Source of the DNA: Antedon mediterranea
Taxonomy: Eukaryota; Animalia; Echinodermata
Reading direction: 5' to 3'
DNA length: 64,000 bases
Assembly (NCBI RefSeq): GCF_964355755.1
Contig: NC_092670.1
Coordinates: 23,856,795-23,920,794, forward strand
In this document: in pieces, positions 23,822 to 64,000 of the stretch
Layout: every line of letters starts with the position of its first letter
How positions within the stretch are numbered: position 1 is the stretch's first letter
Notes under the pieces: model-generated
What the model saw: the letters and a program-made list of their open reading frames with translations, nothing else
Told to the model about the DNA's origin: nothing
The model's database searches: none
Program-made: the position numbers and the translations under genes

Positions 23822-24130
23822 TAAAAGGCTCTGATACTTTATTAATGCTCCGATACTTTATTAATTATGTCCTGCTGGACTCCACCAAAAGGGTAGTCTG
23901 GTATGGGACCTGAGAAAAAGAAACCTTTCTCTCAACAATTCTCTCTGGGCTCTCTGGAAAATTGTTGAGACCAAAGAGAGGCCAAATTATTTAGTTAGGC
24001 CTAAGTAAAATACTAAACCAATTTAGAGATAGTTTAGTTTAGACCTGATCTATAACAGACACCTGTAGCTCTTTCAGAATCAGACTATTGCCACCCGTTG
24101 AGATATCAAAAAGATAAAATAACAACTTAC

Positions 24131-24276
24131 CAAATGAAATCTTTGCAATGACTGCAAAAGGTCGGCTGTTTGAAGTACCGCGCGATAAATTCGTGGTCTT
24201 TGACTTGATGAACATTCTTCTGTCGTAGAGCTCCTCTTCTGGCGAATCCTTTTGGTTTATTTCCAGTAGTGGACAT
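24131..24276 (-). CDS. PRKCA/B-like: Conventional protein kinase C, coding exon 1 (pseudosubstrate + start of C1a); the gene continues beyond the left window edge
   Basis: [48 protein letters not shown](W)|gtaagt matches the cPKC signature [34 protein letters not shown]. Confidence 0.97.
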
Positions 24277-25073
24277 GTTTACAGATATCCCATAAAATGT
24301 TTAAAATGAAAAATGTACAGAGAATTTCGCCCGAACTAGGCCTAGCCTGGGGTTTGTAATCACCTCAGTATCTTCCGCTGATAACGAAGGCTAATGATAA
24401 ACTGTTGAGATACTACCTTTCCCACAGTGTAAACGCAAAGCACTTAACTCACGTTCTCATTATCCCAGCCAACCTGCATAACATTTACCTGGTATATCAC
24501 CGGGGAAGGCACGATTATCAGAACAGGGAGATTTTATCGCATTAAATTCGCCACTGGGTTTCAATTTCATATAATGGTCAAATATAGGAAATAGGAAATA
24601 ATAAAATATTATGAACAGACAGTTTCAACGTTTTATACAATTTGTTTATTTTACCTTTATTGTTTTAAGTGTGGATTACGGGAATTAAGTACAGGGCTCT
24701 GGGACTTTTGGTATTTAAGCCGCTAAGCAATAACATAGGTGGCGCTGTTTAACTTTTATCATCATTCAAAGTAATTTTTTTATCGTTCTTCGCTAGATTC
24801 AGGAGTAATAATAATATGTATTTGGAACAACACTTTTTTAACAGTGGCACACATGCGTAGATGGTACGTCCATACCAATTACAAAATTCAATACAAAAAC
24901 AATGAAAAATAAAAACTGAAACGAAAATAAAACATATTTGAGATAATGACATAAAATTTGACTCGACGCTATTACAAAACTTATTTGCAAACTAAAACTA
25001 CACTAATATACAACTGCTAATTTTGCAACAGCAATGGAAAAGAAAACACTTTTTTTTTTTAAAATAAAACAGT

Positions 25074-28022
25074 TCAAAGTTGTAATACAATTGCATTTCT
25101 TAATTTCCAAGCACGGCTTGTGTACATTTTACAATAACTGTCAAATACAGCATAAATGTCGTGAGAGTTATTTTTATGGAATAACGTGCTTCCTAGGACA
25201 TATTGAACCTTAATAGATAGGTCACCAGAAATAAAATTTACCCAAGTATCTACACAATTTATTGCAATAAGTTTATGTTGAAGTGTTTGTAATTCTTCCA
25301 TTCTAATACAATGTAACTTATTACAAATAAACAGGAAATGTTTAACATCTTCTTCACCTGACCCACAAACCTTACACTTGTCATTTAGATTATCAATGTT
25401 CCACTTATTTGTAATTTTTCCAAGTGGTAAAGTGTTTGAACGAAGTTTAAATTTTAAACTTGAGCCATAAAAATCTGTTTTATCCAGTAGGTAAGGTTCT
25501 AGGCTAGGTGACTCTTTTATCAAAGAGTAATCAAGCAAAGATGATTTTCTTAATACTTCTTGTTTCCAAAAAGTAGAATACGATTGTTTAATTGTATTTT
25601 CAAATGGCTTGACCCAGTTTATATCAATAAAAGTACCTGTACATATATCATTAAGAATGGCATTGAAATCGAACTTAATATAATCACAAGTTTTTTTCAA
25701 ATTCATTAATAAATTGGTACCTTGAATTAAAATTCTTATGTCTAATAATTGTGTTTAATATAAGTTTTGGCCAACGATACATTTCCATACACATAACATT
25801 TCTTATATATTTTGCTTTAAAAATATCCTGAGTTACTTTAATTGGTTGCCAACCTAGATCGCCATAAAGTGCCTCTTTTGCAGTGCTTCTACTCGCTTTA
25901 AGAATTGTTCGCGCCATTTGTAATTGAAGAGACTCAATCCTTTGTATGTCTTTAGTATTTGTATTGACACATACAGCACAAGCATAGTTAATAGTCGGAA
26001 GTCCGATACTTCTCCAAAGGATATCTCCATATACAACACGATCAAAATTGTTGAGTCTATCTATAATAGATTTAATGTACGCAATGATCCTATTGCCCTT
26101 TTTAATAACTTGATTGATGTGGAAATTGTCTTTTAGATTTCTAGAAATGTATACACCAAAATACTTATATGTTTCAATTATCCCCCAATTTCCAAAGTTT
26201 TTCGCTATTCAGATTCTGGCCTATTATCAAAACATTTGACTTTTCACTATTAAAATTAAATTTCCATTTTTTAGCAAATAAGGATACTAAATCTAACATT
26301 TTATTGAGTTCTTTTTCGCTATCTGCTAAAAGTACGATATCGTCGGCCCAAAAAAGGCTACCAAGGCAGATATCGTGTATGCGCACACCTAACGCGTGTT
26401 CTCGTAATAATTTAGTGAGTTCGTTCATTATTATGCAAAACAGGGTTGAGGAAAGGACACACCCTTGCTTAACACCTTCTTCTATATCAAAAGACTGTGT
26501 TTCAATGTCACCAAATCTTACTTGCCCCTTAACATTGTCGTACAAGCTACTTATAATATTCCATAATCTACCACGAATTCCAATATTCCATATTGCCATT
26601 AGCAATCCATCTCTCCATACGCTATCAAATGCTTTTTTTATGTCAAGGAATGCTAAGTAAGTCTTCTTGCCTTCCGCAAGTCGGCAACTACCCAGTGGGC
26701 AAAAATTGGTTGAATTAACGTTAATTCAACGTTATCTGCAAACGTTGAAATAACGTTGAAAAAGTGGTTGAAAATGAAAGTTTGCCTCAACGTAAATGTC
26801 AACGTTGAATCAACATAGAAATTATCAACGTTGAAACAACGTTAAAATAAGTAACGTTGAAATAACGTTGAAAAAATGGTTGAAAATGAAAGTTTGCCTC
26901 AACGTAAATGTCAACGTTGAATCAACATAGAAATTATCAACGTTGAAACAACGTTAAAATAAGTAACGTTGAAATAACGTTGAAAAAATGGTTGAAAATG
27001 AAAGTTTGCCTCAACTTAAATGTCAACGTTGAATCAACATAGAAATTATCAACGTTGAAACAACGTTAAAATAGGTAACATTGAAATAACGTTGAAAAAA
27101 TGGTTGAAAATGAAAGTTTGCCTCAACGTAAATGTCAACGTTGAATCAACATAGAAATTATCAACGTTGAAACAACGTTAAAATAGGTAACGTTGAAATA
27201 ACGTTGAAAAAATGGTTGAAAATGAAAGTTTGCCTCAACGTAAATGTCAACGTTGAATCAACATAGAAATTATCAACGTTCAAACAACGTTAAAATAAGT
27301 AACGTTGAAATAACGTTGAAAAAATGGTTGAAAATGAAAGTTTGCCTCAACAAAAATGTCAACGTTGATTCAACATAGATTATCAACGTTGAAACAACGT
27401 AAAAATGTATACGTTGAAATTATCAATGTTGATTCAATGTTGAAATTATTAACGTTGAAACAACGTAATAATTAAGTTGAAATGAAAATTTGCATCAACG
27501 TAAATTTAAACATAGATTTAACGTTGAAATTTGATTTGTTGAATTACTATATCCAATTTGAATCAACGGTTTTAAAGTAGTTAGTAGTAAAGTTACTGTT
27601 ACGTCGCAGAATCCATCAATAGAGACATTTTATAAATACTGTATATCTTACTAATCTTTAATTTCTATAAAAACATAAAATAACATTTAATCAGGTGTTA
27701 TCAAATCATCAGGCAAAATCCAAGCAACAATCAAATAATGTACATCCTCACTGACAGTTCTCAGGTACCAATGATATTCCTCTAAAGTTATTTAGGTCCC
27801 TTCTATCACCCTTTTTATATATTGGTACAACAATGCTACTATTCCATTCCGACGGTACTTTTTCAAGACTAACAATTTTTTTGAATAGTGATAACATTAA
27901 TCTATTTAAAATCGTCCCACCGTTTTTAAGTAATTCATTAGATATATTGTCAGAACCAGCAGATTTGTTGTTTTTTGATTGGTAGATAGCAGATTTAACT
28001 ATATCTAATGTGACTGTATCTT
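25074..28022 (-). mobile_element. 5'-truncated, frameshifted non-LTR retrotransposon ORF2 (RT + C-terminal zinc finger), interrupted
   Basis: 27757-28022: KSAGSDNISNELLK...VPSEWNSSIVVPIYKKGDRRDLNNFRGISL. 26688 downward: FLDIKKAFDSVWR...GVKQGCVLS...LFWADD. 25074-25706: CKVC...EEDVKHFLFIC. Confidence 0.92.
26690..27560. mobile_element. CCCAG-ended element (CMC/EnSpm-like) containing a 112 bp tandem array rich in aacgtt palindromes
   Basis: Begins ta|cccagtgggc. Unit starts at 26741, 26853, 26965, 27077, 27189, 27301 (period 112). The other terminus was not found. Confidence 0.7.
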
Positions 28023-31245: not shown

Positions 31246-31653
31246 TTCATATTTATTTTGTAATGCAAATTTTACATTCAGTTAATAAATGAGGAAGTGT
31301 GCAATAACTACTGTATAAAAGGCCGATAAAAAGGAGTTGAATTAACTACTTTCTAACTATATAAACATCAGATTTTATGCAAATTCAATCTCGACAAACG
31401 TAAGTATTCACTGAATAAAATTGTTTAGTGGATATAGTGGTTGGTGCTAATTCAAGAGCCGGGGCTAGACAGGCCATAACAGCAATATCACACTTTTAAT
31501 TAAAATCTCTTTTTTTTTGTATAATTTCCATCCAAAAAATGTATATCTTTTTTAACAAATTGTATACATTCAAATATTAGTGTCAAACAAGCTAATGCAT
31601 TGTATTACCTTACTTGTATTACTTTTTATTTCTTTTATAGAAAACTGATCAAA

Positions 31654-34340
31654 ATGAAATACTATGTAATGTGGGTTATATGTGTCTGTAGCAGCAGCAA
31701 CTTAGTAGCAGCCCAAACTGGTGAGAAAATAATTGTTATTTGGTCTGCGTTCTTCCGGCCGATAAAATAACATCACAAGTATTAAAAACCTTTCATAGAA
31801 CAGCTTCTCATTGAAAAATAAATCAATTGCATTGTAAGTGGCAGGTTAGCAGAAGAGTATAGGGTATCAAAAACACCAGTGTTGGAAGAACAAGATCTCT
31901 TTGAAATTATCAATAAACAAATAAGAAATAAATAATCATACTGATCTGTTTCTCCGTCAAATGGAACAATAAGTAACTTTCACCGGGTTTGCAGTGGAGA
32001 ATAAATACTAGTAGTAAAGTTAGTTTGTGTAAAATAAATTATGAGAATTTTTCTGAGAATTTAATGCTTATAATGTTTTAAAATTTAACGATGTTATTCA
32101 CGGATGTGATTACCGATATTGCCAGTAAATCTGAATATCAACTACGGTAAACTTAACATCATCAAGAGTTACAGCGTAGACAGCTTGAAATATGTAGTTT
32201 TGTAAAGTAAGACTAAATATCATATTTTATATAAACACCTTTTTTATACATGTTTTTCTTTTATATAAGGGTTTGGTTCCTGTTCAAAAACCCCATCCCA
32301 TCCAGATAATGGTGTTATACTGTATAGTCCAGGAAGCCCCGGCAATCTTCCAAACTTAATGCACGGGACAAGAGCTCAGTATTTATGCAATGTTGGGTAC
32401 ACCAATATTGGACCTCAACTTGTTATATATTGCTACAATGGAACATGGCTTGGATTAGATAACGATGAACCATCTATGTGTGTTAAAAAGCGTAAGTAAG
32501 ATAAATATATAATAATAAAATACTTGATAACAGTATAATCTGTATACTTTTAATTGTAGTGTTCTCCTAGCTGTTATATCTACGTTCAATTGACAACAAA
32601 CTGCTTAATCCGAAACTTGTGTTATAGGCCTATTATTCGTCAGAACTGCATCTTTTAAGGAATTTAGTTTATATGTAATTTCTCTCTTCCCTGATTATTT
32701 CAAATATCGAAACACAATACAAAGGTAATGACTGATTTGATACATGCAAAATTTGAAGAAAAGTTCAGTAAAGATCATATCAATTACTTATCGAACTCAT
32801 CATTGAATCATTTAAGCCTCCTTTGAGAACTTATGATAAATAATGATGATGACTATCAATAAAAGTAGAAAAGTGAATTGTATTCTAGTTTTCTACTCCA
32901 ATAGTTATATATGTAACAATTTATCTCAATTAGTTATGATAAAATAAAATCTCGCCGTGTTTATGATCCTTAGATAATAATGATTGCAAGTCACCAGAAG
33001 GTAATTCTAGAAGGAACTATTTGATACAAACTGGTAGCTTCAGAAGTGCAGTAAAGTACAAGTGTGTTCCAGGCTACATTTTGCATCCGAAGAATAGAAC
33101 GGTATCAAACTGTATCAACGGAGGGTGGACACAGCTTGCACCACATTGTATCGATCCATCAAGTAAGTAAGAAAAGTAGGAGAGTAGGAGCCTATTTCAT
33201 TTCAAGAACATTTTAATAATTTCAGCAATGACATAATAACGACAGCGGATTGCATTAAGGTATCTAACACTTATAGAAGAAACAAAGTTGATTGTTTCGT
33301 GCAAGATCTCAAAGAAAAACTAACAAAGTTTCAGAAATAAAATTCCGATTACACTTGTGTATCAGAATGTTGAAATCGGAAAAAAAATATCAAGATATAT
33401 TAAAATTAAATATTTTAAATAAGATATAAAATCATAATTCAACAATAATAAAACATTGTTTTTCAGTCATCTTAGCATCACCAACTCCAGATGATAAAGG
33501 TAGGTCTAATTTTATTACTAGCTATGAATGATAGTAAACAAATAATACACTATCTTCAGTATTTCATATATTTTCATAGGCCTATGATATAAATAAAAAT
33601 ATTCATTTTCTTGTTAGACCGCCTAATAATTTTAATGTTTATATTTCATTATAAAAATGAATGGGTTAATACTATGCTTGCGTGGTGTCAGATAAAATAC
33701 AAATTAATGAATATTCGATTGAGAAGGTGTACCTTGTAAAGGACCGACATTCAACAAACAAACCTCTTGATTTTTACATAAACTATATCTATGAAAACTG
33801 GACTATTTTCCATAATAACGCTGCAGTAGTTCACTCAGTATATAATACCACCTTTCACTCTTCATACCATACTACCTTTGCATTGTATTAAGTTAGATAC
33901 ATTAGGCCTATACAATTGAATAATCGAGCTGCCCGCAGGCAATCCGAGGTGGAACCCTATTGACGGGTAGGCCTACTCTCCACTCGGCGGATTATGTTGA
34001 GTTATATCTAGTCAGCTTAACTTGTAATTCTTTAACATAAAACATAATTAGCCTTCTGCCTTAACTGCATTGCATTGTTTTAAGCTATACATGCATTTTA
34101 ATTGTAGACGAAAAAGACAATTCGTCATCGGGTTCTCTGTCACCAGGAGTTGTAGTTGGAATCGTGGTAGCAGTTTTGTTAATCCTTATCTTTGGAATTC
34201 TCATCTATCGTACGCGTTTTCGCTTCTATAAACGGAACAGTAACTTGTAAGTATATATAGTATCATTTTATGTTTTTTAGCGTATACGTATATAACTTAT
34301 CAACATTTTTCACATTACGATTTTTTCTCATAGTGTTTGA
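31654..34340 (+). CDS. Receptor paralogue A: signal peptide - 2 Sushi/CCP - TM - short tail, no kinase (~218 aa)
   Basis: Exons 31654-31720, 32270-32491, 32974-33162, 33467-33499, 34108-34246, 34334-34340 (TGA); all GT-AG and in frame. Sushi motifs C..P.HPDNG...C..GY...C.NG.W...C. TM GVVVGIVVAVLLILIFGILIY. Probable terminal exon from 34652 with AATAAA near 34920. Confidence 0.8.
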
Positions 34341-37300
34341 GATGGACATGACTCTGGGACAGCTATTGAACCGCCACAAAGGTTAGATATGTTTGCTTGT
34401 TTTTTTCAATCATAATTACCGTAAACATAAATATAAATTTCAACAATTAGACATTTGAAATTACGGTAAATTTCTTAATGCAGTTGCCATTTTTTCCATA
34501 AACATGTATGATAAAGAGGATATGTGTATATAGTCTTTATTCATTCTCATAAAAAAATTCTGTGCAAGTCCAGTTAGCTAAGTTATTCCCTTGTTTCAAA
34601 GTGTATTCAATTTCTTTATTAACATAACCAGGCCTATGTTTTTTCTTCTAGGGGGACGCTCTCCGACCAGCCATGGATACGGCACGCATCATTTTTTTTC
34701 TATTATTGTAAAGGAGAAAGCATGGATAATCCATACGACTAATTATTAACATGGCGTCCAGTTGTTTGGTTAAATAGTATACACCTCGGTTTATGTAGGC
34801 GGACCTCTTTCAATCCATATCGACATATTTATGTTTTTTAAATTAAAATTACTGTTCTTGTAGCGTGGTCTATTCGAGATCCACCTATTATTTAACATTT
34901 TGATTTATATAAAATGGAAAATAAAAGCTGTAACGTTTATTACTATTACATTAATATACAATTAGATAATCGATCTGGCCGTAACCGGGCACTCTCTCCT
35001 CGGATCAGGGAGATTAGGTTGAGTTATATCTAGGAAATAGGTCAGCTATTTTGTAATTCTTAATAGAAAGTAATTAGCCTCATGCATTATTCGTAATTTC
35101 TGCCTTAACTGGATAGGACAAAATAATGTATCCAGCCACTTTATTTATCAAGAGTGGTAAAATATAAAATATACCACATTTTTAGGAATGTTATTGTCAA
35201 ACTCTTGACACATAGAAGGATGGAATATGCGAAGGTAAAATATAAACTTGGAATTTTATGGGAAATGTTTATAATTACTATTAGTGGAAGTAGAGTGGGG
35301 AAACTATTAACATGTATCATTAACATATTATAAGATAGATATTAAAGGCCAGGTGCGGGCAAAACATTTCTATTGATCATACATTCCAATAATTATCGAT
35401 CTATAGTTTCCCCTATGTTTCATAATTTTGGGGATTTTATTTGTGTTACACGAGCTTGTTGAAAATAAGGACTTTCTTATCAGTGGGGGGATAGTTCAAA
35501 TTACACAGTAAAATCTCTATTCTTTTGTACACAAATTTTGTAAATAGAGAGGCATTTTAAAAAGCTACGAAAAATAAACAGTGTGGTAAAAAATGTTATC
35601 AGATGACTAAGTATAAGTAATATAACTTGAATATTAAATTTCTGGAATGTTTATTGAACTTCAAATTTTTATTTTCATGCTATATCAAAAATTATCCACC
35701 GTATATCCACCATCTTTTTTTACCTTCTAGTGAGTCACAAAACATGTTATTACATTAGGTTAACTACCTAACTACTGAAAAAAGTCTTCCTGGTTTTTAT
35801 GGAAGAATTGTGCCAAATTTTGTATTTGACCATATTAAGGGAAATTCATGTTTTTTCGTCGTGATTTCTGTTACAAATATTTGATTTATATTATACAATT
35901 AACCAAATATTATATTTAAAATTCATGCCTGTTCCTGAGCTTTAAAGCATCCTAGGAAAAAAAATTAGTATTTTAAAAGGTAATTTTTAATATTGCTGCT
36001 AATTGTTTATGATTTTCATTACTATTGGATTTTCGTTTGTATTTTTTATGTTGTTAAAATGTTAGATGATTTGTTTGTTTAGTTTAAGATTTAATAATGT
36101 TTTTTTATGCATGTCGAAAACTCAAATTTACAGAATACCCGGAAAAAATTTTGTATTGATAAATATAGATTACCTCAGTAACTTTACATTTTCCTGGGCT
36201 CTGTTTTTCATGTATTTGTCATATATTTGTACAATAAATTTGTCAATATAAGAAGATTTAGGTGTTTTAACAATTAACGTATGATAGGATTACATCATTG
36301 CAGTATTTAAAGAAAGGCAGTGGAGGTTGAATTGCCTTTTTTAAATAAATAAAATAAATACAATAAACTGTGCCACTGACGTCACTTACTTTATACAATA
36401 GAGTGTATAATAGACTGGCGGAACTTTGTAATAAAACATCAGTACATTTAGATCCTAATCTCATCGAATCAACTTTTAAGCGAAGAAAATATTAATAATA
36501 CAATTCACAATGCCTAAAACGATTTTTTATAAACCAACCAACAGCGCATTACACAGATTGCTAAAAAGGCATAAGAGAAGTAAAGAGTGAAATGACACAC
36601 TTCCCTGGATTAATCGAATACTATATCCCTTAAAAAAATCGTATTAATAATCAGCATAGCGGATATAACTAGTGCCATCACAGTTCATCAAACTAAATAT
36701 TGTATAAGCAGCAACAATGTTATATTGTGGGTGAAAATCGATGAAAGATATGTGGCAATTATGAATTATGGCAAACTATGACATTTTTTATTTAGATTTT
36801 CTGAAACATGCTCTAATTTCATTATAAATTGATTTTTGGCAAATGTTGACACACACACGACATGTGTATGTACCGGTACCATGTCTCCTTCTTCTCAAAT
36901 GTTTAAACTTTAATTACCCGATGTGTATCTGATAAGCGGTTGATACGGTGAATTCACAAAATGGCGCCTTGATCGGTGGTTGAGTGATTCTGTTTTCAAA
37001 AAAACATTAAATAAACATTGAGGAGGAATATACAGAATTCTACATTAACAAAAGGACACTTAACAAAATAAGCACTATTAACTTTGAATATACCAGGAAA
37101 CATATATTATTTTCTTTGATACAAACACATCTTAACAGAAGCGTGAAAGGTATTGTAAGCAATAATTATTTTGGCGCACTAAAGTTACAATACAAAGCTG
37201 ACTAAGCATTATTTGTTTAAATTTATGATATTGTTAGGAATATGGAAAATGACCTTAATAGACAACAACGCTGTACTTTATGAGAATATTTTTAGCCGTG

Positions 37301-38277
37301 ATTATATAAAATGACAATTTTGTTATAGCATAGTATGTTCTTCTGTGTAACAATAAGACTGTGTAAACAACTCAGTTTCGTCGATGATTTAACTTCACGT
37401 TTAAACTTTACAAAAAAAGGGAAACTTTGAATTTAATACTCAAAGTGCAATGTGAAAGTTTAGGTCTAAAATATCTACATACTTCAGACGTCTCAACATT
37501 CTAAAGTCTAATTCGTCATGAAGTCTAAAAAAAAAAGAATTTTGCAGGTAAACGAAAATGCAGTTATGCGAGATTTGGTCAAAATTATGATAGTTTTTAG
37601 GTTTGTGCACAGGTTTCGGATATATCTTATTATTTCTTTATTATTATCATCTTTAAAATAGGTCGTGGTAAGACAACAAATTACAAGAAAGTCACTGTAC
37701 CTATAATAACTTCGAACACCTATTGAAAGATAATGAACCGTGTATGTCGAACAAAACTTTGAACAAAGCATTGAATATTTTGTTGACGACGGTACTAAAT
37801 TTAAAATATGACGTAAATTTCATATTCAACCAATAGGAAGTAAACGGTATCTGTATTCTGTGCCAAGTGTGGTATTGTTCCTCTGATGAAAACTGTAAAT
37901 AAAAACGAAATCCTTCTGTTAACAGACTTATTGTACCAAACAATTTTCCATTAGCCTAAACCTTTATTTAAACATCAGAATTCACTATGCAAGTACAATT
38001 TTGACAAACGTAAGTATTTTGCAGAATCAAATTGTTAATTGAGTGGGGAGATGTGAGTAATCCATGCTGATCCGGACTAGACAGTCCATGATCTGTGTAG
38101 TAAGCATACTGTAGTACATTTTAATTATAATATCATTTTTTGTGTAATTCTTATTCTAAAACATAAGAGGTATGATATCCTTGTGAAAAGAAGTACATTT
38201 AAATTCTATTTTCAAACATACAGACTACTGTAATACATTATTTTTCTGTTTTATTTCCTTGTAGAAAACTGATCAAA

Positions 38278-52055
<13,778 letters not shown>

Positions 52056-52700
52056 TGATGTGGGATAGCGAGAAATAAAGTCAAGATAATCAAGATTAAT
52101 TAATAATGATCTTTAATATACCATGGCAATCAAACAACAGGACGCTGAGCTCGCTTGCCAAGATATGCTATCGCAACAGACTTTGATCCGCGATTTAGGC
52201 CTTTACGAATTCTTACAAAGCCGTCGAATTCATACGTTGAATTTTATTTATTGTTATTTTTAAATACAATTAAAATTGTATTTTGGTGTTTTAAAACGTT
52301 CTTTGTGTGTGCATTTTACGAATATGAATTTTAAATAGGCATTTAATTTCTTTAATTGATTTAAGTTCATCGAAGTAGTCACAACATTTTAGATCCAACA
52401 GTTTTCCAGTTTTTTTCCTTGATTTGAAATTATGTGTACCGTTACATTTCATTTTGACAATGTTGCCATTAAAATACATAAACCAGAGATGTTTATACTC
52501 ACTTTATTGTTAGGTTTCCCCAAATGAAGTGTCCTTCATACATTCTCATTAATTCTAATCGTATCGGGGTCCAAACTTTTCCCTTTGATCTAGGAAAGCG
52601 TAGTGTTTAATATATCAGTTTACAGTTACTTTGTAGAAGACAAGGTAACGATTTCTCACAATACCATGGGTCAATCAAAATAATTTTTTATTGTAACGGT

Positions 52701-52886
52701 GAACAACAACAACAGCAGCACCAGCACCAGCAACATCAGCAACAGCAGCAACAACAACAGCAACAGCAGCAATATTAGCAGCAACAGCAGCAGCAGCAAC
52801 AACAACAACAGCAACAGCAACAACAACCGCAGCAGCAACAACAACAACAGCAACAGCAACAGCAACAGCAACAACAACAACAACAA

Positions 52887-52919
<33 letters not shown>

Positions 52920-53000
52920 TAGCAGCAGCAGCAACAACAACAGCAACAACAACAGCAAAAACAACAACAACAGAAGCAGCAGCAGCAACAACAGCAGCAC

Positions 53001-53062
<62 letters not shown>

Positions 53063-53268
53063 ACAACAATAACAACAACAGCAACATCAGCAACATTAGC
53101 AGCAGCAGCAACAACAGCAGCAACAACAACAACAACAGCAACAACACAGCAGCAACAAAAACAGCAACAACAGCAACAACATCAGCAACAGCAGCAGCAA
53201 CAGCAACAACAAAAACAGCAACAACAGCAACAACAGCAGCAACAGCAACAACAACAAAAACAGCAACA
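52701..53268. repeat. Compound (CAA/CAG)n trinucleotide tract, ~570 bp
   Basis: Directly visible; gives poly-N/S, poly-L and poly-T/A ORFs. Confidence 0.97.
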
Positions 53269-56200
53269 ATGTTTCTTCTTCTAGGAGGATGCTTTCAGAC
53301 CAGTGGATACAGCACACATCATATTTTTTTTTCTATTATTGTAAAACAGAAAGAGAAAGACTAATTATTAACATGGCGTCCAGTTGTTTGGTTCAATAGT
53401 ATACACCTCGGTTTATGTGGGCGGAGCTCTTTCAAACCCTATTGACATATTTATGTTTTTTAAATTGAGATAACTGTTCTTGTAGCTGGTTTATACCACA
53501 CCTGTAATTTTAACATTTTGATTTATATAAAATGGAAAATAAAAACTGGAACGTTTATTACTATTTACATTAATATACAAAATAGATAATCGATCTGGTC
53601 GTAACTGCGTACTCATTTCTCGGATCAGGGAGATTAGGTTGAGTTATATTTCGGAAATAGGTCAGCTATTTTGTAATTCTTAATTAGACTCATGCATTAT
53701 TCGTAATTTCTGCCATAACTTGATAGGACAAAATAATGTATCCAGCCACTATATTGATAAAGAGTGGTGAAATAGAAATTATAGAAGGATGGAATATGCG
53801 AAGGTAAAATATAACCTCATAATTTTATGGGAAATATTTATAAATACTATAAATGGAAGTAGGGCGGGTGAACTATTAACATGTATCTTAGTTATAAGAT
53901 AGATATTAAAGCATCCTAGGAAAAAAACTAGGATATAAAAAGTTAATTTTTAATGTTTCTGCTAATTGTTGTTTATAATTTCATTATTATTGGATTTTCT
54001 TTTGTATTGTTTACGTTGTTAAAATTTTAGATAATTTGTTTGTTTAGTTTAAGATTTAATTTTGTTTTTTTTATGTATGTCGAAAACTCAAATTTACAGA
54101 ATACTCGGACAAAATGTTGTGTTGATAAGAACATGTGGAATAAATATAGATTACCTCATTAACTTTACATTGGCTTTGTTTTTCATGTATTTGTCATATA
54201 TTTGTACAATAAATTTGTCAATATAAGAAGATTCAGATGTTTTAACAATTAACGTATGATAGCATTACACCATTGCAGTATTTAAAGAAAGGCAGTGGAG
54301 GTTGAATTACCTTTTTTGAGTAAATAAAATAAATACAATAAACTGTGCCACTGACGTCACCTACTCTATACAATCTTAGTGTATAATAGACTGGCGGAAA
54401 TCTGAAGTAAAACATCAGTACATTTAGATCTTAATCTCATCGAATCAACTTGTAAGTGAAGAATTCACAATGCATAAAACGAATGCTTATAAACCAACAG
54501 CGCAATACACCATTGCTGAGAAGGCAAGATTAATCAGAGAAGAAAGAGTGAAAGTACACTCTTCCCTGGATTAATCGAATACTATGGCCCTTTAAAAATT
54601 AATAATCAAGCATAGCGGATGTAAATAGTGCCATCACAGTTCAACAAACTTTGAATTGTATAAGCAGCAACAATGTTATATATTGTGGGTGAAATCGATG
54701 AAGGATATATGGGAGGCACGCTGTACGAATTATGGCAAACTATGAAAATCCAAATTTTCATTTAAGATTTCCTGAAACATGCTCTAATTTGATTATAAAT
54801 TGATTTTTGGCATGACATGTGTATGTACCGGGTGGTATCATGTTTTCTTCTTCTCAAATGTTGACCATTTAATTACCCGAAGTGTATGTGAACATGTAAA
54901 CATTTAGGAGAAATATACAGAATTCTACATTAACAACAGAACACTTAAAAAGAAAATAAGCACAATAGTTACTTTGAATATACCAGGAAACTTATATTAA
55001 TTTTTTTTTAGAAATTTGACACACACACATCTTAACAGAAGTGTGAAAAGTATTGTAAGCAATAATTATTTTGGCGCACTAGTTACAACATAAAGCTGAC
55101 AAAGCATTATTTGTTTGAATTTATGATATTGTTAAGAATATGGAAGATGACCTTTATAGACAACAACGCTGTACTTTATGATATTATTTTTATCCTTGAT
55201 TATTAAATGATAACAAAGTTTTGTTATAGAATATTATGTTTGTTTATCTGTGTAACACAAAAACAATTTGCAGGTAAACGAAAATGCAGTTATGTGAGTT
55301 TTGGTCAAAATTATAATAGTTCTTTGGTTTACGGATAAGTTTCGGATATATCCGCTGAACAAATCTTATTATTTCTCTTTATTATTATCATCTTTAAAAT
55401 AGGTCGTGGTAAGACAACAGATTACAAAAAAGTCCCAGTACCTATAACAACTTCGAACACCTATTGAAAGATAATGAACCGTATAATGGCGAATACACTT
55501 TCAACAAAGCATTGAATATTTTGTTGGCGACGGTACTAAATTTAAAATATGACGTAAATTTCATATTCAACCAATAGGCATACTCGAGGAAGTATACGGT
55601 ATCTATATTCTGTGCCAAGTGAGGTATTGTACCTCTGATGAATAGAAATAAAACGAAACCCTTTTGTTAACAAACTTATTGTATCAAACCATTTTCCATT
55701 AAACCTTTATTTAAACATCAGAATTCACTTTGCAAGTACCATTTTGACAAACGTAAGTATTTTGTAGAATCTAATTGTTAATTGGGTGGGGAGATGTGAG
55801 TAATCCAAGCTGCTCCGGGCTAGACAGTCTAGTAGTAAGCATACGGAAGTGCATTATATATACTATATCATACATAATTATTTGTATAATTCTTATTCTA
55901 AAATATAATAGGGAATAATATCCTTGTCAAAAGAAGTACATTTAAATTATAGTTTTAAACATACAAACTATTATAATGCGTTATTTTTCAGTTTTATTTC
56001 TTTATAGAAAACTGATCAAAATGAAATACTATGCATTGCTGGTTTTATGCGTTTGTGAAATAATACACTTAGTAGCAGCCCAAACTGGTAAGAACATTAT
56101 TTTTACTAGGTCTGTTGTATAAACACAAAATAAACTCGTTTATTGACAAAATAAATCCATTGCATTGAACCGTGTTATTACTGTTTTTTACTTACTGTCC

Positions 56201-59200
56201 AGGCACACTAGTGTTAAGTAATTATTGTCTGACAGCAACTATTTTGTTTCAATTCATTTTGCTGTAGGGCCTATTAGTTTTTTTCTCAAATCAGCATCAA
56301 ATTACATTGTTTTTTTCATTACTATTCAGAGAATCCTAATATAATTTCCATGTTGATTTGATCAACCAGTAAATAGTGAATGATATTAAAATAAATTATT
56401 TTACAGAATTTTATCAACGTACTAAATATTTTGTGGTTTAAGACTAAATATTCTAAACATTTTTTTACATAAGAAACGGGTTCCTGTGAAAAAATCCCAA
56501 CCAATCCAATGAATGGTGTTATAATATATACTCCAGAAACCCTGAATGATCTTCCTAACTTAATGAACGGCACAAGAGCTGACTATGTATGTAATGATGG
56601 TTATACAAATATTGGACCTCAACTTGTTATTTATTGCTACAATGGTATATGGCGTGGATTAAAAAACCATACGCCAACTAGGTGCGATGTAAAGTCTACA
56701 GGTAAGTAAAAGTACAACAAAACTGTTTTATTCGTAGGTTATGCTTATTCGGCTGCGCTGATCTATTTGAGATATGTCTCCAATAATGATGGGGAATACG
56801 TTTTGCAAGTTATGAAGATCATTTTGGATTCTCTATAACCACGCAAGGCATTCACACTTCAATGTGTTTTTAACAATTTAGACAAAAGTGGGAATAAGTG
56901 GATAGAGTAAATAAATGGAATTTATTGCTATAAATGATTTAATGAAAGATTAACAATTTTTATCTAGATTTTTTGGAATATAATATTTTTTTGTAATTAT
57001 ATTTTGTTTTCTAATGTATATTATGTTTGTAAACGTTTTTGTCTGTTTTTCATTTTATCTATTTATCTTACGTATCTTTTATGATATTTTTTGTTATAAA
57101 TTAGGAAATAAACACAGGTAACCTTAACAATTTAGTTGAGTTTAGGATGAGTCAAATAATACAAAATCTCTTTATGTGATTATCCTCAGATATTACTAAT
57201 CTTGATTGTGAGTCCCCAGAAGGCGAATCAAAAAGGACTAACTTGATACAGACTGGTAGTTACAGAGGTGCAGTTAATTATGAGTGTGTTCCAGGCTACA
57301 CTTTGTATCCGAAGGATAGAACGGTATCAAACTGTATCAACGGAGGATGGACACAGCCTGCACCAAATTGTGTCGATCCATCAAGTACGAATTAGAGTGA
57401 TAGATAGATGGCTATGATGAATACCAGAGTTCACATCTCACATTGACATTTTTGTTATTTCTAAATGGTCTACATACACAATTGAACACAACGTAAATGG
57501 GCTGTAAAGGTCGATCTGTTTATGCTATTGTGTATCAAAATGTGGAAAATATACAAAATATTAAGTTGATTTTGAAATAAAAAATTATCAAAATCTATTA
57601 CATTTCAAAAATTATTGTTATAAGGTATATTCAGCAGTCCTAGTTAATAGTTCATTAGCTTGGGTCGGAATATCAAATATAAGAAACCCAATAATTTTCT
57701 TTTCAAAAAGATTTCTAAATTCCTTCATTCATTAATGGAAGAATAAGTTGTATAGAATGAACTATCCCAACAATTGAATGAAAGTTCGATTGAAAGTGTA
57801 CCTTGTACAAGGACTAATAGACAGACAGCCATGCCAATATGTTATACCATAAAACTCTATCTTACTTAATAGTTATCCTTGCTATCTACATTATATATTT
57901 ACACTATACATTTTAATTGTAGACGAAGAAGACGATCCGTCATCGGGTTCTTCGTCAACAGGAGCTATAGTTGGAATCGTTGTAGCAGTTGTGCTAATTC
58001 TTATAGTTGCAGTTCTCATCTATCGTTTTCATTTCTATAAACCAAAAGATGATCAGGTAGGTAGTATTAACCAATGATTTTTGACCGTATAATTAATTAT
58101 TGTCAATAAGAGGGCCTAACGTTATTATATATTCTTTTAGAATTTGAGGGGGAACGAAGCTCCGTGGAATGCTGTAGCTTTTGAACCGGCGGCACAAAGG
58201 GTATTTAGTATGTTTGTTATATTTTGCAATTTACAATCACATTTTACCAGGACCATTAATATTACACTATACACTGTCTTTTATATTTTTATAGAATGTG
58301 AATGATAGACCGAGGATAGACGCTCCACCAGTGGACCCTGCACCAAGGGTACGGTATCTAATGCATCTTTTCAGTTTACATTTAGAATCATGTACACAAT
58401 TCCACTCACTTATCTTGTACAGTGCTTGCTGTACATACATAGAATATAACATTGAAGCATGTTGAACATGGATTACAAATTAAAAAAAATAACACTAATG
58501 ATTTAAGATTTACGGTACTTCATGTGCTTCCGACAAAGAACAGTCTCAACGGTTAAAAATATATACACTTCCATCTACATTTCATTTCCTTTTGGACAAA
58601 ATATCTTGTACCGCAAACATTAAGTTACTGGTGGTAGTGTAAACTTACTTACTGTACTTTATGACTTATATCATCAGGTGATAGATGACGTTGAGTTTCC
58701 CTACTCGTCTCCAAATATTGTGTTGCAAAACACTAATGTCACCTTTATTGATCCAGTTGAGGACGTTGCCAACACTTACACGGTTACAATAGCTCACGAA
58801 GGAAGTCGTCGACAAACAGTCATTGCTCATGTTATACATGGTATGTAAAGCTCTGTTAATATAAAACGAGTTTGACAAACAAAGTGTGATGTGCCCAAAT
58901 ATGTTAATTATAATGACGTCATCATGTACATAATAATATGGACAGATGACATTTTTGTCACATAAAATTTAATAGTGTAGACAAAGCTTTAATCATTGTA
59001 ATGATAATATGCGTTGATGATACCAAACAAAATTCACAATCATAATTATCTGTATCCCCATCTTCATCATGGAATAGTTTCTGGTTTTCTAGTTTATTTT
59101 GATCAATTATTATTAAACATTAATCTGATTTCCATTGCTCTTGCAGGCTCGTATACGGAAGAAGAACTACAAGCAATGGAAAGGGAAATAGACACAGTGT

Positions 59201-61355
59201 TCAAACTACCAGTTCACTACGGTGTTATTCGACCAATTGCTCAGATTAAGGACGCAGGTACTTTTATTTATTTCACCTCCATGTTTAATATAACTACAAA
59301 TGAGTAAAGATAATTAAAATACAGCATTTGGAAAAGCTACTTCTACTTGTAAGCTGTTGAAAAAAAGCACAACGGTACCGAGTAAAGAAAGTAGATTTTA
59401 TGAAACAAATATTACAATATATAAAGCTATTGCAATAAGTGTTAATATAACTTTAAATTGTTTTTTTTTTATATAATTACATTATACCTGTGTAAATGCT
59501 TATACAGATATGATCGGTATCTGCACTGAAAAGTCACCGAAGGGGACTTTAAGGAGCTACTTACATTCATTTAGAGATGCACGTAATTCTGTTAAACCAA
59601 AAGCAAGGGAGTTGATCAACTATGCTATACAGATAGCCGAGGCAATGCAGTTTCTACACGAAGAAGAGGTAATAATAATAATAATCATAGTTAGTAATAA
59701 ACATAGGTTATAGATTATAATACATTGTATCGTGTAGGCCTATTCTGCTGTTTGAATACAACATCGTCATCAATGGTGCAAATATTATACTTATTCTATT
59801 TTCTTTGCCGGTGTCTAAATGTCACAGAAAGAGAATAAGCATTGTATTCTATCTTGTATCATACCATTAATATTCATCCATTTTATTACAGAGAGTCTGT
59901 CCAATGCTCCGTTGTCAGTTGGTTATGCTATTTCGTGACAATGTCGTTAAAATTCCAGTTCTTGGTTTGAAACATATTAGTGATAACACCGATCTCTATC
60001 GATTTGTAAGTTGGTTTATTTACAAAAATACATCTTACAGCATAACTTGTTTCTAAATCTATTAAAGGAAGTAGAACATATTACACTTGTTCTTAATTAT
60101 AATAGGGAGGAGAGACGAGACTTCCATTAAGATGGATGTCACCGGAAGCAATTGCCTACCACATTACAACAAAGAAATGTGACGTGTGGACTTTTGGAAT
60201 CGTCCTCTATGAAATTGTAACTTTAGGTAAGAAAACTATTCTTAATAAATTTTAAAACATATTTCTATTCTATCGTTATTCAAAGAATAACCAGTGTGTG
60301 CAGTGTGTTATCGAGTACTTGTTTTTGTTTGTTTCAATATCGTAAGTTGATTATTTCCAGGTTGTGGGCGGATACCTTTATGATTATACTTTTCTTAATG
60401 CGAATATATTTTTTTTTCAGGTGATATTCCGTATGATGGCATAGACGAGAAAAATCTGCCTGGATTGCTATCCAATGGCCACCGTCTTGCAAAACCACAA
60501 TGTTGTTCCAATGCACTGTAAGCGTTGTTAAGTTTAATTCATCCTTCCCTTTGGTAAAAGAGGTATTGGTACAATATGTCTTAGTACAAGGCATCTTTGT
60601 AAAAGGTATCTATGTAAAAGGCATCTTCCATGGCACAGTATGTCTAGAACAGTTAACTTTTAAGTTAACTTTTATCATTCAAGTTCAACCAAGCAGCTGT
60701 GGATGCAAGTTACATTGTCATTTTAAGTTTGTCAAAAAATGTTTTTATGTTATTTTTAAAAATAGATTTTCTCTTATGGAAAGTTGTTGGCAGACTGATC
60801 CAAAAGATCGACCATCTTTTGGTGACCTTGTTTCATATTTGAGAGTTCTAAAAGACGATAACAACGTACGTAATGAGTTTATTACTAACTAACCTATAAT
60901 ATTAAGATAGATTTTTGTGATGGCGCTAGTTACTCTTCGTTATGCGTGAATGATTTATAGAATGACGAATGAATGAATGATACCAAATCCAATGTTCAAT
61001 GCCGTTTCATGACTAGCAATGAGTAAAGTAATGATTGACACGTATTATACAAGTTTAAGATACATACTCCTCTGGCTAGTTAATATAATATTTTAATTAC
61101 TATAATTAACTATTCAAATTGTTTAGTTTGCTTTTTCTTTTATAGGCTATATGTTTTGGACCAGATTACATTGAACATCCATCATCAGGAAATCCATTTT
61201 TGTAGTTCGGTGTAAATTGATGCGGAATGTAATAATATATAAAGGAATGTAAAAACGATAATCATGAACGGCGAACGTCCAAGTAATAATGATTTACTAT
61301 ATATACTCAGAATGTATCAGTTGTTATTTGTAGAAGACAAGCAACGATTTATCAT
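53269..61355 (+). repeat. Segmental tandem duplicate of 34636-52655 (B unit minus its TE insertions)
   Basis: Colinear intergenic, promoter, intron and exon similarity from 53269~34636 (atgttt.ttcttctagg) to 61355~52655 (ttgtagaagacaag..aacgattt). Confidence 0.92.
56021..61205 (+). CDS. Receptor paralogue C: signal peptide - 2 Sushi/CCP - TM - tyrosine pseudokinase (~554 aa)
   Basis: Exons 56021-56087, 56474-56701, 57190-57384, 57923-58056, 58141-58200, 58295-58348, 58678-58840, 59147-59257, 59508-59668, 59892-60005, 60106-60226, 60421-60517, 60766-60865, 61146-61205; open frame. Lacks the stalk mini-exon. Confidence 0.92.
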
Positions 61356-63732: not shown

Positions 63733-64000
63733 ATGAACAAGATTTTCAAGATGAATTTATATCAAGGAGTGTTTCTTATTTTGCTAACATTAACAATTCA
63801 AACTGTACTGTCCAGTGATGTTACCAGTGACAGAAACTTTTACCAAAGACAGTATTGCATTGTGGGTGCTGGGCCAAGCGGACTACAGATGGGATATTTT
63901 TTAGAAAGATCTAATCATGATTATATGATATTTGAGCAGAATAATGCCAGCGGATCATTTTATGTGAAGTATCCAAGACATCGTAAACTTATTAGTATTA
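63733..64000 (+). CDS. FOXRED2: FAD-dependent oxidoreductase domain-containing protein 2, N-terminal part (runs off window)
   Basis: Signal peptide, then [29 protein letters not shown]...[16 protein letters not shown], matching the FOXRED2 motif YCVLGAGPAGLQMAYFL...[12 protein letters not shown]. Confidence 0.93.

Follow-up and report, generated by a model that had tools for sequence, protein, structure and literature searches.

A tandem cluster of Sushi-ectodomain receptor pseudokinase genes in the crinoid Antedon mediterranea

The closest described counterparts of the genes analysed here are the human receptor tyrosine pseudokinases (PTK7, ROR1/2, RYK, STYK1, HER3, EphA10 and EphB6), which join an ectodomain and a single transmembrane (TM) helix to a substituted tyrosine-kinase (TK) fold, and for which trans-phosphorylation and scaffolding are established modes of action (PMC13259870, section 5). 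According to section 4 of the same source, none of their ectodomains is of a Sushi-only type. Sushi (complement control protein, CCP) domains outside and a TK domain inside are found in echinoderm Sushi and WSC-Sushi receptor tyrosine kinases (RTKs) (S. purpuratus XP_030830350; P. miniata XP_038065016 and XP_038056137), auto-named Cad96Ca-, FGFR3- or Tie-like. A third point of comparison is Botryllus Fester/FcoR; the passages available of PMC12582321 place known allorecognition receptors in linked polymorphic haplotypes and give fester a Sushi domain. Here we analyse a 64,000-nucleotide window of A. mediterranea DNA (NC_092670.1, positions 23,856,795 to 23,920,794, forward strand), in which self-comparison found three related units, genes A, B and C.

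B and C share the overall plan of the human receptors, and the scaffold or allosteric action of the latter is also expected for them. They differ in their two-Sushi ectodomain, in the loss of more motifs (including the Gly loop), in lying in a tandem cluster with a kinase-less sibling, and in a kinase domain only 24-29% identical to solved RTK domains. A preliminary description of this DNA had stated that none of the classical vertebrate RTK or pseudo-RTK classes has a CCP-only ectodomain; this holds against the eight human receptor pseudokinases, but RTKs with Sushi ectodomains occur in echinoderms, where Sushi is combined with an intact kinase in three receptors (P0078 of a sea urchin, P0142 and P0160 of a sea star) among 24 proteins scanned with Pfam. 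The echinoderm Sushi RTKs, however, keep the Lys, HRD and DFG, have 25-29% kinase identity and fall outside the crinoid clade in both of our trees. The cluster resembles Fester/FcoR in its type I receptors with Sushi domains, in linkage and in possible haplotype variation, whereas the Botryllus system has more than 35 genes, Ig domains, ITIM/hemITAM co-receptors (immunoreceptor tyrosine-based inhibitory and hemi-activation motifs), no kinase fold and a genetically proven function.

The gene cluster and its transcripts

The window is intron-rich, animal-type DNA of about 31% GC, and the cluster runs from position 31654, the ATG of gene A, to 61205, the last base of the gene C stop codon (Table 1). 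Models built from the window sequence have GT-AG borders at all 32 introns and no internal stop codon. In a script comparison, the B model is identical, letter for letter, to XP_071965946/7 and the C model to XP_071965949; compared by eye, the A model reads the same as XP_071949311. Searches with single exons likewise gave A. mediterranea proteins of 100% identity. All six CCP exons passed the Pfam Sushi cut-off, Pfam found Sushi only in the ectodomain of the B/C-type receptor, and the whole C protein matched PK_Tyr_Ser-Thr (E 2e-50). When the orthologue from Anneissia was used as tblastn query, two complete sets of kinase exons were found (43845-52043 and 58675-61199); the interval from A to B held no such exon. 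A, B and C are real genes that are already annotated, their RefSeq proteins being named 'uncharacterized'. The three adjacent paralogues of the preliminary description (signal peptide, two CCP domains and a TM helix, two with a TK-fold domain and one without) are thus intact models that match RefSeq.

The crinoid receptor pseudokinase family is real, and no paper on it was found in the literature searched, which was mostly open-access main text; kinome tables in supplements could list the Anneissia gene. The term 'undescribed', applied earlier to the system, is therefore apt for that literature but not for the annotation. In its available passages, a holozoan kinome paper (PMC8662651) mentions neither CCP nor echinoderms; the Tie-2-like receptor reported on starfish coelomocytes in the part available of PMC13409769 is different from the crinoid family.

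Table 1. Coordinates of the genes, their exons and associated elements in the window
Feature	Position	Strand	Remarks
Gene A	31654..34340	+	218 aa, 6 coding exons, GT-AG introns 5/5; signal peptide-2xSushi-TM, no kinase
Gene A, probable 5′ untranslated exon	near 31367-31399	+	
Gene A coding exons	31654-31720, 32270-32491, 32974-33162, 33467-33499	+	signal peptide, CCP1, CCP2, stalk
Gene A coding exons, continued	34108-34246, 34334-34340	+	TM, stop-bearing last exon
Homologue of the region downstream of B	34636..35347	+	80% to 53269-53911, which has an RNA contig
Gene B	38278..52055	+	565 aa, 15 exons, GT-AG introns 14/14; signal peptide-2xCCP-stalk-TM-pseudokinase
Gene B exons 1-5	38278-38344, 38741-38968, 39320-39514, 39831-39857, 40352-40485	+	
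Gene B exons 6-10	40567-40626, 42157-42210, 43848-44010, 44616-44726, 44964-45124	+	
Gene B exons 11-15	47132-47245, 47346-47466, 47662-47758, 48022-48121, 51990-52055	+	
B exon with the catalytic loop	47132-47245	+	same catalytic-loop residues as C
Helitron-like copy 1, non-autonomous	40646..42081	+	B intron 6; A/T target, 5′ TC, 3′ CTAG, subterminal palindrome
Helitron-like copy 2	42352..43666	-	B intron 7; inverted; 1313/1314 aligned bases identical to copy 1
Helitron-like copy 3	45141..46899	+	B intron 10; 93% identical to copies 1 and 2
Gene C	56021..61205	+	554 aa, 14 exons, GT-AG introns 13/13; signal peptide-2xCCP-TM-pseudokinase
Gene C exons 1-5	56021-56087, 56474-56701, 57190-57384, 57923-58056, 58141-58200	+	
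Gene C exons 6-10	58295-58348, 58678-58840, 59147-59257, 59508-59668, 59892-60005	+	
Gene C exons 11-14	60106-60226, 60421-60517, 60766-60865, 61146-61205	+	
C exon with the degenerate catalytic loop	59892..60005	+	CPM for HRD, Leu for Asn, VLG for DFG

Transcription was followed in run X1, which is RNA by a tool's guess only and whose joints coincide with predicted introns. Ten of the 13 coding introns of C were seen in the displayed X1 joint tables, two with variant letters and one via a B-like join; the tables were displayed in part, with 16 joints hidden and C introns 2, 3 and 12 outside the displayed rows. TM anchor and kinase belong to one transcript, as a single 880-nt X1 contig links the TM exon, by way of the juxtamembrane exons, to the kinase exons. 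As regards ectodomain and kinase in one transcript, the preliminary description is therefore upheld by X1 from TM to kinase; the CCP2-to-TM joint, which is absent from the displayed tables, rests on the RefSeq models and the Anneissia orthologue.

X1 contains CCP sequence of A-like, B-like and C-like type, and the A-like CCP1 contig has two letters present in neither B nor C. The main X1 contig over the TM and juxtamembrane exons is distinct from B as well as from C: at each of two joints, nine letters are exchanged. It thus represents another allele or paralogue. The 3′ region of A has little X1 coverage, which does not indicate silence. An unspliced X1 contig (60837-61519) spans the last intron of C, of which the spliced form is also present; retention of this intron would swap the conserved Tyr/NPF tail for a short different end.

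The degenerate kinase domain and its relatives

Judged by its motifs, the kinase domain of B and C is catalytically dead. In a comparison with FGFR3 and EGFR and in a motif table of labelled domains, the Gly loop is absent from B and C, and the β3 Lys is replaced by His (Arg in the Anneissia orthologue). In the crinoid domains, HRD has become CPM or CPL, the catalytic Asn Leu or Gln, and DFG VLG or IIG, so that five catalytic motifs are missing from all crinoid domains of the clade described below; the αC Glu is kept in B, C and the Anneissia protein. B and C thus have the structure of receptor tyrosine pseudokinases (ectodomain, single TM and TK-fold, in one transcript) as well as their sequence hallmark, the VAIK Lys, HRD Asp and DFG Asp all being substituted, whereas, by Table 2 of PMC13259870, loss of all these motifs is seen in none of the human eight.

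The dead domain is nonetheless predicted to fold. An AlphaFold2 (AF2) model, for which the input was a 51-sequence alignment of mostly active kinases, has a pLDDT of 88.7, a pTM of 0.88 and β1-5 and αC present, and its top Foldseek matches are FGFR, RET and ABL kinases (TM-score 0.75-0.80). The AF2 model of the full-length receptor (3-sequence alignment, pLDDT 32.6) was not used. Motif loss and predicted fold together agree with the non-catalytic TK-fold module described earlier. Between B and C the kinase has a non-synonymous divergence (dN) of 0.010 and a synonymous divergence (dS) of 0.067, and 190 of 308 kinase and tail residues (62%) are shared with the Anneissia orthologue, which points to purifying selection on the dead domain across two crinoid genera. 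Likewise shared with Anneissia are 11 of the 13 tyrosines after the TM helix and the C-terminal NPF.

Outside Antedon, one close relative came up in word-based searches: Anneissia japonica XP_033103710, auto-named FGFR3-like, which has the same architecture as B and C and the same CP[ML]L catalytic loop. A profile search covered 1.84 billion representatives, relatives being taken from the best 150 matches listed, which were crowded by multi-kinase proteins. Among these was XP_071964453 (P0026), encoded on another chromosome-scale contig of A. mediterranea, with WSC and Sushi domains, a TM helix and two tandem dead kinase domains, the second of which scored 371 bits compared with at most 174 for the other proteins listed. 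XP_033107830 (P0112), a Sushi-bearing pseudokinase of Anneissia, aligns over both CCPs (E 1e-11; 25% overall), but its kinase is degenerate in another way (Lys kept, QPH loop, NFG); it is possibly an older paralogue. No member outside crinoids was found among the 150 matches. The family found in Antedon comprises the three clustered genes and one unlinked relative, and appears to be older and wider than the window.

In trees of 183 domains (FastTree) and of 44 of these (a quick IQ-TREE run), the five crinoid dead-kinase domains form a firm clade (support 1.0 in FastTree, 99 SH-aLRT), whose join with XP_033107830 is a meeting of long branches. The ESM Atlas gave generic matches in Cad96Ca/STYK1-like clusters, and a Sushi+TK cluster of 52, commonest in Porifera.

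Several known identities were considered and rejected. PTK7/CCK4 has a seven-Ig ectodomain and an HKD..N loop, whereas B and C have Sushi only and different motifs and are separate in the trees from the Acropora PTK7-like P0004. The Ig-CRD-Kringle, WIF, minimal, L-domain and Eph ectodomains of ROR, RYK, STYK1, HER3 and EphA10/B6 are likewise at odds with a Pfam result of Sushi only. The FGFR identity implied by the Anneissia auto-name fails, as there is no Ig domain, identity to the Ig-bearing FGFR-like P0080 is 29-30%, and the crinoid domains lie outside its clade. A family of FF/FcoR type would be large with ITIM/ITAM tails; three genes and one unlinked relative were found, and the tail motif is absent.

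Divergence within the cluster and possible functions

Gene A has no kinase exons, as had been claimed of a tail-less sibling. Its stop falls two codons inside what is left of the first juxtamembrane exon (exon 6); this frameshifted remnant carries several frame-breaking indels and was the only nhmmer match downstream of A (E 0.017). The open frame, the TM helix and all 8 CCP cysteines of A are intact, at a dS of about 0.4 to B and C. Because of the missing kinase exons between A and B, the juxtamembrane remnant and the downstream match to B's region, we infer an old internal deletion, of which the segment at 34636..35347 would be the leftover 3′ end.

With roughly even confidence, we favour the view that B and C are non-enzymatic co-receptors or scaffolds, trans-phosphorylated and adaptor-docking, with which A would compete. 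The CCP pair would bind an extracellular protein or a partner receptor, and the receptors may pair through the GxxxG that all three TM helices carry. An active tyrosine kinase would then phosphorylate, in trans, Y255 (juxtamembrane), Y427 (activation loop) and Y543 (tail; C numbering), and the phosphorylated conserved tyrosines would dock adaptors. NPF is an EH-domain motif, and the conserved C-terminal NPF may link the receptors to endocytosis. A, anchored in the membrane, is predicted to compete with B and C; its intact frame, cysteines and TM helix fit a decoy role without proving it. Structure prediction of an ectodomain homodimer scored 0.00 and was counted neither way.

Several points weigh against this view. 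The expression of A is represented by one short A-like contig and the RefSeq models. Most of the conserved tyrosines belong to the kinase core, where their role may be structural, and the predominance of active kinases in the alignment biases the AF2 model towards a canonical fold. According to the part available of PMC13259870, about half of TM helices carry GxxxG, which is thus weak evidence for pairing. Finally, neither tree placed the parent RTK family of the crinoid clade, owing to long branches. Whatever their action, B and C add a receptor pseudokinase lineage independent of the human eight by ectodomain and motifs, more degenerate yet constrained, and offer a clean test case for non-catalytic signalling by the TK fold.

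The differences between B and C are concentrated in the ectodomain. Of the CCP residues 103/139 are identical, compared with 302/308 in kinase and tail, and DNA identity, computed with four intronic elements removed, drops from 0.83-0.95 upstream to 0.50-0.86 in the CCP exons with their neighbouring introns, and stands at 0.90-0.99 between the TM and kinase exons. As dS shows the same contrast as the protein (0.33 in the ectodomain versus 0.067 in the kinase, fivefold, p 5e-6), the two halves have different histories; much of the contrast is a matter of history rather than of demonstrated selection, and could be accounted for either by a recent homogenisation of the kinase half or by ectodomain haplotypes of long standing. 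Under the co-receptor view, an old duplication would have given rise to A, which then lost its kinase exons by internal deletion, while the Sushi exons of B and C diverged and recent conversion or unequal crossing-over preserved the similarity of the two kinase halves. The recent B/C relationship is as the preliminary description had it.

The divergence trough centred on the CCP exons, together with the ratio of nonsynonymous to synonymous changes (50:24 in the ectodomain versus 7:13 in the kinase; Fisher p 0.011), also favours an alternative that we consider unlikely, namely a polymorphic locus for immunity, allorecognition or gamete recognition, with diversified or old-haplotype Sushi exons, the dead kinase as signalling unit and A as an inhibitory or decoy receptor. 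The linked, polymorphic arrangement of known allorecognition receptors, the X1 TM/juxtamembrane version distinct from B and C, and C ectodomain contigs at about half depth (one sample, a rough guide) point the same way. However, Sushi dN/dS is 0.43-0.57, exceeding 1 only in the B/C CCP1 exon (1.3, with 6 synonymous changes), and identity to Anneissia is 51-57% for Sushi versus 62% for the kinase, so the Sushi domains are not hypervariable. Moreover, the family found is small, and neither ITAM (the activation counterpart) nor ITIM occurs in the tail, ITIM-like patterns being absent from the juxtamembrane region and tail and matching only in the kinase core. We make no claim of patchwork exchange among CCP exons, since it was suggested by a per-base test (48/103 changes, p 0.0001) but was not significant per codon (36 changes among 60 codons, p 0.26). 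The 'variable ectodomain' claimed earlier thus applies between B and C but hardly between genera, and the likeness to paired recognition receptors extends to the Sushi-only ectodomain, dead kinase and kinase-less sibling, but not to family size, tail motifs or dN/dS.

In DNA run X3, exact-match contigs over the C ectodomain and upstream have a depth of 147-159, compared with 273-303 around A, 271-278 downstream of C and 238-250 over the B ectodomain; kinase-region contigs have 292-358. Run X2 gave 4.9-5.6 over the C ectodomain versus 8.8-10.7 at A and the flank, and X2 and X5, from the same sample as X3, point the same way for C. Depths of contigs are approximate and the comparison is of one sample (two samples in all when the variant TM/juxtamembrane version is included), but there is a hint that the 5′ half of C is on one haplotype only. 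Half depth of C would suit a further alternative, doubtful in our judgement, in which one gene alone is functional and encodes a conserved crinoid co-receptor for development or adhesion, and in which birth-and-death duplication left behind A, as a truncated copy in slow decay, and C, as an additional copy that segregates. That a single close Anneissia orthologue was found, that B has gathered three Helitron copies and a foldback element, and that tyrosine kinases have expanded repeatedly in single animal lineages (EXTK, in the passages available of PMC3342872) are in keeping with it. Yet A has kept its frame and cysteines despite its dS and the indel-riddled exon-6 remnant, and A-, B- and C-like CCP sequences are all in X1.

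A last alternative, which we consider highly improbable, is that the assembler placed two divergent alleles of a single locus in tandem as B and C, so that the cluster really has two genes. The half depth of C and its upstream region, the near single-locus depth of the kinase-region contigs and the long CAA/CAG repeat at the B/C junction would agree with it. Against it, B ectodomain depth in X3 is not about 150, and apart from the last exon and a 50-base match the downstream sequences of B and C are unlike. If they were alleles, an identity of only 74% in the Sushi pair would favour a recognition locus. In its fullest and, we think, improbable form, such a locus would be haplotype-variable, with diversified Sushi pairs on a near-invariant dead TK, a kinase-less decoy, transposon-driven exon skipping, and the module reused in tandem on the WSC-Sushi receptor. 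Crinoid receptors for immunity and self-recognition have received little study, and the cluster would become a candidate recognition locus should population data show balanced Sushi haplotypes; otherwise it would be one more lineage-specific receptor family, as in echinoderm genomes.

Mobile elements and neighbouring genes

Helitrons are recognised by an A/T target, 5′ TC, 3′ CTAG and a subterminal hairpin, and all three copies in the introns of B have these features; copy 1 has very high depth in X3. The inverted copies 1 and 2 (40646-43666) flank the 54-nt exon 7 of B, and RefSeq isoform X2 (P0001) is exactly B minus exon 7, which suggests that skipping of this exon may be driven by a hairpin of the Helitron pair.

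The last intron of B holds a foldback-like element (48400-51900), missing from C, whose arms are inverted and whose internal repeats are ~346 bp long. The CAA/CAG repeat at the junction (~590 bp, 52684-53270) is 3′ of the B stop, and an X1 contig over 53400-53911 extends towards it; the repeat may thus be in the 3′ untranslated region of B. The intron after the first kinase exon holds a small very high-copy element (58869-58991 and 44040-44100), with a depth spike in all four runs.

Outside the cluster, an exon at 24130-24300 (minus strand) encodes a pseudosubstrate and the start of a C1 domain (Pfam C1_1, E 1e-5, slightly below cut-off) and presumably belongs to an upstream opposite-strand protein kinase C gene. 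At 63751-64000 (plus strand) begins a gene for a secreted flavoprotein (Pfam Pyr_redox_3), which we take to resemble FOXRED2. Broken LINE-type (long interspersed nuclear element) reverse transcriptase frames, identified by eye, lie at 25077-28020 on the minus strand and are split by a 112-bp tandem repeat.

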